Positions 48,759 through 50,077 are shown, counted from the first letter of the stretch. The stretch is DNA of 64,000 bases from an uncultured Clostridia bacterium (GCA_934153805.1 CAKPFO010000001.1:31080-95079); one strand, 5' to 3'. Numbers and translations are program-made. The notes: a model not told the origin generated them from the sequence alone.

Positions 48759-49130
48759 CTATGGATTAAATGAATTTGCTAAATTGTATACAACACCTAC
48801 TATTGTTGTAGAAGCAAATAATAATATTGCACCAATTATGTATGGTATCATTGTCTTTTTGTATTCTGCTTTTTCTTCTGCACTACCTATCATATATTTA
48901 ATACCTATTACTAATAATACAACAACTGCTACAACTATACCTACTGTTTGCATAATTGTTACTATTGTTTTTCCTAAATTTACAACTTCTGCTGGTTGTT
49001 TTCCACTACCTTTTGCCATATCTTTTATTGTTTGATCAATGCTGACTGTTGCAAATACTGAAGTTGAAACCATTGTTAATGCCATTAATACTATTAATAA
49101 TACAGATATTATTTTTACTTGCTTTTTCAT
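48759..49130 (-). CDS. VirB2/TrbC-pilin-like small secreted membrane protein (paralog 1 of 3)
   Basis: Signal peptide + two hydrophobic helices separated by GIKYMIGSAEEKAEYKKTM loop. Confidence 0.4.
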   Translation of the reverse strand: MKKQVKIISVLLIVLMALTMVSTSVFATVSIDQTIKDMAKGSGKQPAEVVNLGKTIVTIMQTVGIVVAVVVLLVIGIKYMIGSAEEKAEYKKTMIPYIIGAILLFASTTIVGVVYNLANSFNP

Positions 49131-49218
49131 AAATTTTCCTCCTTAATTTTCATTACTGCTTTTATTATAATATATTTTTTCCTAATTTTCAACTATTTTT
49201 TACTTATTTTTCTATTTT

Positions 49219-49623
49219 TTATTCCAAACCTTGTAAAACTATTACTACAATCTTCCATATAGTAAATGCTCCAAAGGCTATAATACATCCTATTACATAT
49301 GGTGGTAAGGCTTTTTGCACCTCTGCTTTTCCTTCTGCACCTTCCATTATGAATTTTATTCCTAGTATTGCTCCTAATAATACTGCTACTATTATTGCTA
49401 TTACTAATAGTATATTATACAAAGTATCTGTTAAATTCTTCATGCTATCTTTACTGATTATTCCATTTGCTTTTTGTTCTCCTATATTTAAAAAGTTGTC
49501 AGCCTCTTCTACTACTTCTCCTGCACTATGGCTTTCTGCGTATATTTTAGAATTAAAACACATACCTGCCATAACAATTGTAATAATCATTATTATATAT
49601 ATTACTTTTTTCATTGCATTCAC
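49219..49623 (-). CDS. VirB2/TrbC-pilin-like protein (paralog 2)
   Basis: Same architecture: LGIKFIMEGAEGKAEVQKAL loop. Confidence 0.4.
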   Translation of the reverse strand: MNAMKKVIYIIMIITIVMAGMCFNSKIYAESHSAGEVVEEADNFLNIGEQKANGIISKDSMKNLTDTLYNILLVIAIIVAVLLGAILGIKFIMEGAEGKAEVQKALPPYVIGCIIAFGAFTIWKIVVIVLQGLE

Positions 49624-49633
49624 CTTCTTCTCT

Positions 49634-50077
49634 TTAATATAATTCTTGTCTAATTGTATTTTTGTTATTTTTATCTATTCCTTTATTTGGTATGCTTGTA
49701 CTTGTGCTTGAACTACTTGGTTTTATAGATGTTGTTACATTCCAGATTATACTTACTATTGTACTTGTGCAAAAAAGTAATATCATACCTACCAAAATAG
49801 GCATCATTGTCTTTTTATATTCTGCTTTTTCTTCTACACTTCCTACCATATACTTGATTCCTAAAAACATTACTGTTATTACGGCTACAACTACACCTGT
49901 AATAGTTATTGCGTTAAGTATTACACCTGCCATTTTAAAAGGTTTATAATAATCTGTTTGATCCAAATCGCTTGGTTTATAATCATCTGGTTGGATCGTT
50001 GCATTAACAATTCCAGTAAAGCTTGTAATTGTTAGTATAACTAATATTGCTATTATTGCTATTTTTTTTATTTTCAT
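49634..50077 (-). CDS. VirB2/TrbC-pilin-like protein (paralog 3, Ser/Thr-rich tail)
   Basis: LGIKYMVGSVEEKAEYKKTM loop, nearly identical to paralog 1. Confidence 0.4.
   Translation of the reverse strand: MKIKKIAIIAILVILTITSFTGIVNATIQPDDYKPSDLDQTDYYKPFKMAGVILNAITITGVVVAVITVMFLGIKYMVGSVEEKAEYKKTMMPILVGMILLFCTSTIVSIIWNVTTSIKPSSSSTSTSIPNKGIDKNNKNTIRQELY

Follow-up and report, generated by a model that had tools for sequence, protein, structure and literature searches.

The closest parallel to the locus described here is Patescibacteria's type IV secretion system (T4SS), for example that of Southlakia epibionticum ML1 (Wang et al. 2023; Quinonero-Coronel et al. 2025, PMC12102498). According to a nomenclature review of December 2025, Gram-positive T4SSs lack VirB2 and VirB5, Patescibacteria being the sole exception, and the six-pilin array of Southlakia is termed 'remarkable' (PMC12857230). 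Patescibacterial VirB2 genes stand in arrays of 2-11 with an average identity of 25%, match the same two Pfam models as the genes reported below, and accompany VirB3, TrsD, VirB4 and VirB6, with the relaxase mostly not near virB4; the same survey argues from the 'absence' of VirB2 in mating-pair-formation class FATA (MPF-FATA) systems (PMC12102498). Here we analyze three tandem genes at positions 48759-50077 of a 64,000-nucleotide stretch of DNA (the window) from an uncultured Clostridia bacterium (GCA_934153805.1, CAKPFO010000001.1:31080-95079). We consider it likely that these genes encode VirB2/TrbC-type prepilins of a chromosomally fixed, vertically inherited, MPF-FATA-type T4SS in uncultured low-GC gut Clostridia. 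A first-pass annotation of the DNA had called pilins unexpected in a Firmicute system, a surprise that the review's statement on Gram-positive T4SSs makes well founded (PMC12857230).

In the patescibacterial systems and in this locus alike, the host is monoderm and its genome reduced, the genes are chromosomal, divergent VirB2 genes form a tandem array, there is usually no nearby relaxase, and the parts list comprises VirB3/PrgI, TrsD, VirB4 and VirB6. They differ in that the host here belongs to the Clostridia and the pilins here form stable orthogroups in a fixed order; the likeness is one of parts list.

The three genes are minus-strand open reading frames (ORFs) that lie where the first-pass annotation had placed three tandem paralogs, with products of the lengths it gave in amino acids (aa):

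49634-50077, minus strand: pilin 3 gene, 147 aa, first gene of the array
49219-49623, minus strand: pilin 2 gene, 134 aa counted from a GTG codon, middle gene of the array, with a longer variable N-terminal region
48759-49130, minus strand: pilin 1 gene, 123 aa, last gene of the array

The identity of these proteins is carried by profile similarity. Pilin 1 scores 43.4 bits with PF18895 (T4SS_pilin) and 39.0 bits with PF04956 (TrbC/VirB2), and pilin 3 scores 30.5 and 30.6 bits; all four values exceed the Pfam gathering cut-offs of 26.6 and 27.9 bits, respectively (E-values for the two passing pilins, 3.6e-11 and 3.8e-07), which bears out the VirB2/TrbC type proposed in the first-pass annotation. 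Using orthologue-group profiles built from 44 related genomes, hhalign matched the pilin-2 group to the pilin-1 group with a probability of 99.9% (E 2e-31) and to the pilin-3 group with 99.8% (E 2e-29), and E-values among the three groups ranged from 2e-29 to 4e-46. We therefore regard pilin 2 as a homologue of pilins 1 and 3 despite its sub-threshold Pfam score. By these profile comparisons, the similarity of the pilins to one another and to the pilin families is far above chance, and the three genes are identified as encoding VirB2/TrbC-type pilin homologues. Weak matches were also seen to the NCBIfam model for a Mycoplasma 'pilin-like conjugal transfer protein' from an integrative conjugative element (ICE; 17-23 bits against a cut-off of 40) and, for pilin 3, to the pLS20_p028 model. 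Holin, TcpD/TcpE and Orf19 families, of which the first-pass annotation had named holin, TcpD and Orf19 as possible alternatives, are absent from the Pfam and NCBIfam matches of the pilins.

The family is already known to databases, since Pfam holds T4SS_pilin and JGI labels one homologue a VirB2 pilin. It is large, with 4444 clusters when grouped at 90% identity and 6297 representatives when the level is 50% (E <= 1e-3), and a tblastn search with pilin 1 gave no match in 72,556 plasmids. Some relatives encode proteins in which two to five pilin hairpin modules are joined in one polypeptide (P0252, P0257); P0252, of 450 aa, has five GIKYMxGSxEEKAEYKK repeats behind a single leader. Such fused multi-hairpin proteins are either real poly-pilins or artefacts of assembly or gene calling.

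The layout of the three proteins is that expected of prepilins. Each N-terminus is Lys-rich and continues into a hydrophobic stretch with a small-x-Ala end, giving the candidate cleavage sites VFA/T, IYA/E and VNA/T, and the alanine at position -1 is kept in all three orthologue groups. Based on sequence rules and on this conserved alanine, a cleavable signal peptide is predicted for all three, so the lack of a cleavage site, which would have spoken for a different kind of protein, was not encountered. Behind the leader come two hydrophobic segments, each of about 25-30 residues, separated by a short Lys/Glu loop (IGIKYMIGSAEEKAEYKKTM in pilin 1, LGIKFIMEGAEGKAEVQKAL in pilin 2 and LGIKYMVGSVEEKAEYKKTM in pilin 3). 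Hydropathy and the small-x-Ala sites thus agree with the leader, paired helices and charged loop described in the first-pass annotation, whose quoted loop motifs were correct overall apart from one wrong residue. An AlphaFold pilin model (predicted local distance difference test, pLDDT, 72) is a helix-loop-helix with helices at 47-81 and 84-120. The C-terminal tail of pilin 3 is Ser/Thr-rich and hypervariable, and is unconserved beyond residue ~119. The start of pilin 2 is probably not the GTG; three codons downstream lies an ATG (49614) that is preceded by GAAGG with better Shine-Dalgarno spacing, gives a protein of 131 aa, and is the start called on two of four related contigs.

To place the array among its relatives, we drew on a pattern scan of GTDB species representatives that returned 428 matching stretches, the best 80 of which, each from a different species, were analyzed. 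These 80 loci all come from metagenome-assembled genomes (MAGs) of uncultured gut Clostridia from humans, rabbits, mice and ruminants, with 26-32% GC and one closed chromosome of 1.55 Mb among them. Nearly all keep the order pilin array, prgI, trsD-like, virB4, virB6-like, orf311. VirB4 is 77-92% identical across 77 related genomes (median 83%), and in 34/34 loci it is more conserved than the M16 peptidase next to it. Because VirB4 outconserves its neighbours and the gene order is kept, we read the system as a core function that is under strong constraint and passed on vertically. Among the 80 loci is that of MAG UMGS1663 (pilin 1 71% and VirB4 92% identical to those of the window), and the genus UMGS1663 has been placed in the GTDB order TANB77, an uncultured gut order of reduced genomes (Kim et al. 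2024, PMC11680825). The host of the window is therefore probably a member of TANB77.

The array has three copies in 46 of the related loci, four in 18 and five in 4; a single copy and seven copies were each seen in one locus. In three-copy arrays, the pilin-1 type occupies position -1, next to prgI, in 48/48 cases, the pilin-2 type position -2 in 46/48 and the pilin-3 type position -3 in 36/48, while the extra copies of four- and five-copy arrays are mostly duplicates of the pilin-1 type. Paralogues within an array are 30-40% identical in the window (median 39% across relatives), whereas the pilins of strains of the window's own species are 97-99% identical. These comparisons indicate that the three pilins are ancient orthogroups kept in a fixed order. 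The first-pass annotation had suggested antigenically variable subunits; ancient, fixed-order orthogroups that are nearly identical between strains argue against this and for specialised subunits. Pilin 1 is the most conserved of the three. Across relatives the loop, GIKYMxGSAEEKAEYKKTMxP in the pilin-1 type, and the helices are nearly invariant, while the N-terminal ~20 residues of the mature pilin and the tail of pilin 3 are free to vary. In conjugative pili of solved structure the loop faces the lumen and the termini point outward, so an invariant loop and helices with variable termini are what a polymer of these proteins should display.

The array lies directly upstream of prgI, trsD-like and virB4, confirming that the pilin family heads a T4SS gene set. 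The genes of the cassette that follow it are these:

48184-48537, minus strand: PrgI-family (VirB3-like) membrane protein (PF12666, 33.5 bits, cut-off 27)
46983-48191, minus strand: TrsD-like protein, 402 aa, made up of a transmembrane helix at the N-terminus and a domain paralogous to the N-terminal domain of VirB4
45056-47029, minus strand: VirB4-family ATPase, 657 aa, with P-loop_TraG, DUF87 and AAA_10 domains
42510-45038, minus strand: putative VirB6-like polytopic membrane protein (orf842), 842 aa, hydrophobic segments between residues 173 and 328
41538-42473, minus strand: bitopic membrane protein (orf311), 311 aa, a helix/sheet domain plus a beta-sandwich ectodomain, kept in 61 related loci
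41200-41526, minus strand: protein of 108 aa (orf108) with one transmembrane helix, hydrophobic segment 24-56
37680-41246, minus strand: wall hydrolase (orf1188), 1188 aa (Peptidase_C39_2, 36.5 bits; Metallophos, 22.7 bits)
36352-37596, minus strand: bitopic protein, 414 aa, one N-terminal hydrophobic segment, last gene of the cassette

PrgI, whose probable start is the ATG at 48531 (115 aa), follows the pilin array directly in 79/80 related genomes. The TrsD-like protein, kept in 78 related loci, aligns with positions 101-412 of the Mycoplasma-ICE VirB4 model and carries the precomputed annotation PF26593 TraC-like. VirB4 scores 207.6 bits with the CD1110-family VirB4 model, below the equivalog cut-off of 325, and 193.6 bits with the Mycoplasma-ICE VirB4 model, likewise below its equivalog cut-off. 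Taken by best match, which is the basis of the class assignment, PrgI, the TrsD-like protein and VirB4 (CD1110-family and Mycoplasma-ICE models) point to MPF-FATA. The Tcp/Tn916 type named in the first-pass annotation did not hold up, as Pfam and NCBIfam scans of the cassette proteins gave no TcpA/Orf21 (FtsK-like coupling protein), TcpC/Orf13, TcpE/Orf17 or TcpH/Orf15 families and gave MPF-FATA-type matches instead. As listed, the trsD-like and virB4 genes overlap by 47 nucleotides (nt). We rejected the idea that the two are a frameshifted pseudogene; they are separate genes in 77-78 genomes and on plasmids.

The polytopic protein orf842 is placed and folded through the membrane like an extended VirB6. 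It has no direct VirB6 family match in Pfam, and a PDB sequence search returned nothing usable. It contains a pilin-like hairpin of its own at residues ~167-229 (window 44350-44540), which scores 21.9 bits with PF18895 and aligns with the pilin profile in hhalign (E 1.4e-4); its loop reads SADKAKYKQM, compared with SAEEKAEYKKTM in the pilin. A plasmid homologue of orf842 has a PF18895-type pilin-like score of 23 bits, and Gram-positive VirB6-like proteins may carry a built-in VirB2-like module. Residues 41-120 of orf842 (~44679-44918), in its N-terminal ectodomain, are 30-42% identical in three of four same-species contigs and 72-77% identical in the fourth, and a second variable stretch covers residues ~480-680; in the same contigs VirB4 is 100% identical, and the pilins vary as little as stated above. 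It is the VirB6-like protein, rather than the pilins, that has diversified at the level of strains.

An AlphaFold model of orf311 (pLDDT 87) finds its best PDB matches in 3fbq, 4les, YjhA and PBP2a/PBP5 (N-terminal regions), and neither VirB8 nor TcpC is among the top 50 structure matches; by position and topology, orf311 is a possible VirB8-like scaffold. In orf1188, a C39-like papain-fold peptidase domain is joined to a C-terminal calcineurin-like metallophosphoesterase domain (window 37680-38500), for which teichoic acid or nucleic acid are possible substrates; PDB sequence searches with the whole protein and with its C-terminal domain returned nothing usable. The same slot holds Phage_lysozyme2 plus NLPC_P60 in a more distant relative (L088) and C39 plus a 3D domain on Clostridium plasmids, and because hydrolases sit there in relatives and plasmids we take it to be the VirB1-like wall-hydrolase position. 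The orf108 protein aligns with the N-terminus of a single 1087-aa protein in another distant relative (L087) and, by this alignment, corresponds to the N-terminal membrane anchor of the relatives' wall hydrolases. The orf108 and orf1188 genes overlap by 47 nt in different frames (41200-41246). L087 and L088 have a single anchored hydrolase, whereas it is split in 4/4 same-species contigs, and therefore the split is a true two-gene arrangement or a programmed frameshift. The last protein, of 414 aa, has no Pfam, NCBIfam or PADLOC family; L087 and L088 have a protein of 429-442 aa in its position. PADLOC defence models found nothing relevant among the cassette proteins.

The surroundings of the cassette speak against a conjugative element. 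On one side lie an amidohydrolase, GdpP, ribosomal protein L9 and DnaB, and on the other the Spo0E-like gene, two M16 peptidases, YqeY and S21. Of the 80 loci, 34-36 retain the M16-peptidase and Spo0E-like genes immediately upstream, and about 30 retain YqeY too. Base composition is uniform across the window, with the cassette the same as its flanks. Neither a relaxase nor a coupling protein nor an integrase was among the Pfam and NCBIfam matches of the cassette genes and of the ORFs of at least about 250 aa in the 64-kb window. Among the called genes around the cassette in relatives there is likewise no relaxase or coupling protein, and in L087 and L088 no relaxase, coupling protein or integrase lies past the cassette, where unrelated genes follow. 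Because of the housekeeping flanks, the neighbourhood conserved across species and the lack of these transfer genes in the window, gene content and context establish the locus as fixed in the chromosome and not a mobile element. To judge from the same gene content, the machine is not one for mobile-element transfer.

How this system relates to others becomes clearer when likenesses and differences are set side by side. It has several parts in common with the MPF-FATA systems of Firmicutes (pGO1, pCF10, C. difficile CTn elements, Mycoplasma ICEs): VirB3 is of the PrgI family, VirB4 has its best matches in the CD1110-family and Mycoplasma-ICE models, there is a TrsD-like protein such as pGO1 has, the VirB6-like protein is polytopic, and the wall hydrolase has multiple domains. 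Those systems are mobile and have a relaxase and a coupling protein, whereas this locus is chromosomally fixed and has three clear pilins; MPF-FATA conjugation systems have been described as being without VirB2 (PMC12102498, PMC12857230). The nearest plasmid relatives are Clostridium megaplasmids of C. botulinum (p12/29-type; L085, cassette at 9060-20317) and C. beijerinckii (L086), where the gene order is that of the cassette: a pilin-like gene, a small membrane protein, TrsD-like, VirB4, VirB6-like and a C39-type hydrolase. Their VirB4 is 41-42% identical to that of the window, the TrsD-like counterpart is 25% identical (E 7e-29) and an 864-aa protein is homologous to orf842 (E 9e-15). They differ in having one pilin-like gene, sub-threshold in Pfam at 18.2 bits and found solely via VirB4 synteny, and a hydrolase whose last domain is 3D, in place of the metallophosphoesterase. 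Both megaplasmids are typed 'non-mobilizable' and encode a small HD-domain protein downstream of the cassette. HD-domain proteins have been proposed as MOBH-like relaxases in gut megaplasmids (2026 preprint, bioRxiv 10.64898/2026.02.21.707213), and on the strength of this proposal the Clostridium megaplasmids may be conjugative.

Two further comparisons are instructive. The Trw system of Bartonella also has tandemly amplified, divergent pilin genes and no coupling protein (in our case, none in the locus), and it is thought to form adhesive pili and not to translocate substrates (PMC12857230). It differs in that it is Gram-negative, belongs to MPF-T and has both an outer-membrane core and a co-amplified VirB5, and its copies are tied to host-specific binding, whereas the pilin copies here are conserved between strains. 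No VirB5-like protein was recognised here; no cassette protein matched such a family in Pfam scans, VirB5 homologues being hard to detect by sequence. In TANB77, a conserved 'pilin' cluster has been described, which is a Tad (type IVc) pilus, in a paper that mentions neither T4SS nor VirB2 (PMC11680825). If the TANB77 assignment holds, that cluster belongs to the same order as our host, and it too is a conserved chromosomal cluster with several 'pilin-like' genes; it is an unrelated machine, with a CpaF/TadA ATPase, a TadB/C platform and one-helix pilins. We considered the 'conserved pilin' of the TANB77 literature as a possible member of the present family and rejected it, as it belongs to the Tad system. 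In a full-text literature that is incomplete, no paper came up that connects VirB2-like T4SS pilins with TANB77 or Clostridia.

Candidate expression signals, recognised by consensus matching, set pilin 1 apart from its neighbours:

50111-50139, minus strand: promoter-like site TTGAAA-17-TATAAT upstream of pilin 3, 11/12 consensus matches
49164-49192, minus strand: promoter-like site TTGAAA-17-TATAAT within the 88 nt that separate pilin 1 from pilin 2, 11/12 matches
48731-48757, minus strand: hairpin and T-run, AAAAAGCTAG-TAAAC-CTAGCTTTTTTT, directly after pilin 1, terminator- or attenuator-like
48608-48637, minus strand: promoter-like site whose -10 is extended (TG), lying upstream of prgI and the other machinery genes, 10/12 matches

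The sites before pilin 3 and pilin 1 have the joint best promoter-like scores in the region, and the ribosome-binding site of pilin 1 is AAGGAGG. RNAfold gives -17.1 kcal/mol for a 76-nt segment with the hairpin after pilin 1, which a simple terminator scan did not flag. Relatives show the same arrangement: a T-run of at least 5 T lies within 70 nt past the last pilin in 67/79, and the last pilin is set off by a gap of median length 88 nt, versus ~18 nt between other pilins. These consensus signals and spacings suggest that pilin 1 is produced in excess as the major subunit. Directly upstream of the array (region 50371-50676) lies a 63-aa Spo0E-like gene, followed by a strong terminator with a 19-bp stem. 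The gene occupies the same place upstream of the array in 36/80 related loci, and a regulatory link to the pilins is possible.

Based on these observations, we propose the following mechanism. The prepilins would enter the membrane through Sec and be cut by signal peptidase I after VFA, IYA or VNA, and the mature pilin would rest there as a two-helix hairpin with its conserved Lys/Glu loop in the cytoplasm. By analogy with Gram-negative pilus biogenesis, VirB4, together with VirB3 and TrsD, would then extract the pilins from the membrane and stack them on the VirB6-like platform, where that protein's own pilin-like hairpin may seed the polymer. The product would be a tube or pilus, for whose passage across the thick wall the hydrolase would make an opening. 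Pilin 1, with its own promoter-like site, consensus ribosome-binding site, terminator-like hairpin and highest conservation, is the likely major subunit, and pilins 2 and 3 would be specialised minor or alternative subunits, their variable N-terminus and C-terminal tail facing outward. As to function, we tentatively suggest contact-dependent attachment to, or exchange with, other cells, by analogy with what has been proposed for Patescibacteria; adhesion alone and DNA uptake are alternative possibilities.

Several points weigh against this proposal. The case for a filament, for processing and for expression is made wholly from sequence. Pilin 2 scores 20.4 bits with PF18895, short of the 26.6 cut-off, and has no match to PF04956. 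Structure searches with the AlphaFold hairpin return thousands of unrelated helical proteins, among which pilins are indistinguishable from other helical hairpins, and a PDB search with the pilin profile finds one solved pilin, TrwL (8s6h), at a non-significant E of 0.67. The VirB6 and VirB8 identities are assigned from position and topology, not family matches. A coupling protein or an unconventional relaxase could lie elsewhere in the genome beyond the 64-kb window. Finally, the assignment of the host to TANB77 is an extrapolation from one named MAG and one paper's statement, not a classification.

Among the alternatives, the one that fares best, although we think it unlikely, is that these VirB2 homologues build no filament but remain in the membrane, where they would form part of the translocation channel or stabilise VirB4/VirB6. 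The VirB2 of Gram-negative systems is required for substrate transfer even where there is no pilus (PMC12857230), the VirB6-like protein has a pilin-like hairpin built in, and up to five fused hairpins, as in P0252, are hard to square with polymerisation of free subunits. Pulling the other way, a separate strong promoter-like site, a consensus ribosome-binding site and a terminator-like hairpin make pilin 1 look like a structural subunit of high copy number, variable exposed termini around an invariant core are the pattern expected of a surface polymer, and three to five copies are maintained.

It is quite unlikely, in our judgment, that the cassette is the mating-pair-formation module of an ICE, or an old remnant of one, whose pilins serve conjugation with coupling protein and relaxase encoded elsewhere. 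Every recognisable part is homologous to conjugation proteins, and the same cassette occurs on the C. botulinum and C. beijerinckii megaplasmids, with VirB4 at the 41-42% identity given above and an HD-domain protein downstream, such proteins having been described as MOBH-like relaxases (bioRxiv 10.64898/2026.02.21.707213); moreover, coupling-protein genes are often distant from virB4 (PMC12102498). An ICE would nevertheless be hard to reconcile with 64 kb that contain no relaxase, coupling protein or integrase, with their absence past the cassette in two relatives, and with upstream M16 and Spo0E-like genes kept in 34-36 of 80 species and YqeY in about 30. Nor would one expect a mobile-element gene to be conserved above adjacent housekeeping genes, as VirB4 is, or base composition to equal that of the flanks.

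A DNA-uptake (competence) system like H. pylori ComB or archaeal Ced/Ted, in which the pilin polymer would capture or conduct incoming DNA, seems to us just as improbable as the ICE. The metallophosphoesterase superfamily includes nucleases, and the hydrolase has such a domain; this domain is not kept in its slot, where relatives have lysozyme plus NlpC/P60 or a 3D domain. ComB and Ced have VirB2-, VirB4- and VirB6-like parts and no coupling protein or relaxase (PMC12857230, PMC12102498), and in one tested patescibacterial system T4SS essentiality is independent of ComEC-mediated transformation (PMC12857230). That the three are unrelated small membrane proteins (holin-like, bacteriocin-immunity-like or TcpD/TcpE-type) mimicking pilin topology is extremely improbable, for although two-helix hairpins are common, structure searches match thousands of unrelated helical proteins and pilin 2 by itself is below the Pfam threshold, two of the three pilins score above the curated thresholds for two pilin families, neither holin nor Tcp families are among the matches, and the pilins lie next to prgI and virB4 in nearly all 80 related genomes.

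If VirB2/TrbC-type prepilins of a fixed T4SS are indeed what these genes encode, several consequences follow. Clear VirB2-family arrays beside an MPF-FATA-type VirB4 in Clostridia contradict the reviews' 'no VirB2' for Gram-positive systems (PMC12857230, PMC12102498), and weaker pilin-like genes are also present in the homologous cassette of Clostridium plasmids. A chromosomally fixed monoderm T4SS with a VirB2 array has hitherto been described in Patescibacteria only. The locus thus offers a second, independent lineage in which to ask whether monoderm T4SSs build pili and how the tube crosses a thick wall, and a system in which to ask what a T4SS with neither relaxase nor coupling protein does. 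The probable host order, TANB77, is a prevalent uncultured order of the human gut that has been linked to cancer immunotherapy response, and a search of it for conserved surface structures reported the Tad pilus only (PMC11680825). As a second conserved, probably surface-exposed machine of TANB77, the locus is relevant to cultivation and to host-microbe studies. We also offer a more speculative idea, which we hold to be doubtful: that TANB77-type Clostridia live off partner cells and rely for this on a T4SS/VirB2 pilus, a conduit or attachment organ that they could not do without, as Saccharibacteria appear to rely on theirs, and that their system may be the sister or the source of the patescibacterial T4SS. 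If true, this would explain where the pilins of Patescibacteria came from, MPF-FATA systems being held to be without VirB2.

Two features of the wider window complete the description. GdpP, L9 and DnaB (30568-34621) lie just downstream of the cassette (36352-50077), in the order and orientation found beside oriC in Bacillus subtilis, and GC skew is negative over nearly the whole window; from this gene order and skew, the cassette may be origin-proximal. Neither dnaA nor an origin is present in the window. Many patescibacterial T4SS loci have been reported as origin-proximal (PMC12102498). Farther away, a 725-aa acidic surface protein (12292-14469) with a signal peptide, a C-terminal TPKTG, a hydrophobic segment and a KKKR tail, and with no Pfam family, is encoded in a stretch of locally higher GC (36%). 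A sortase gene lies 2.6 kb from it (17072-17824), and the pairing of a sortase with a protein bearing a TPKTG sorting signal fits a monoderm wall.

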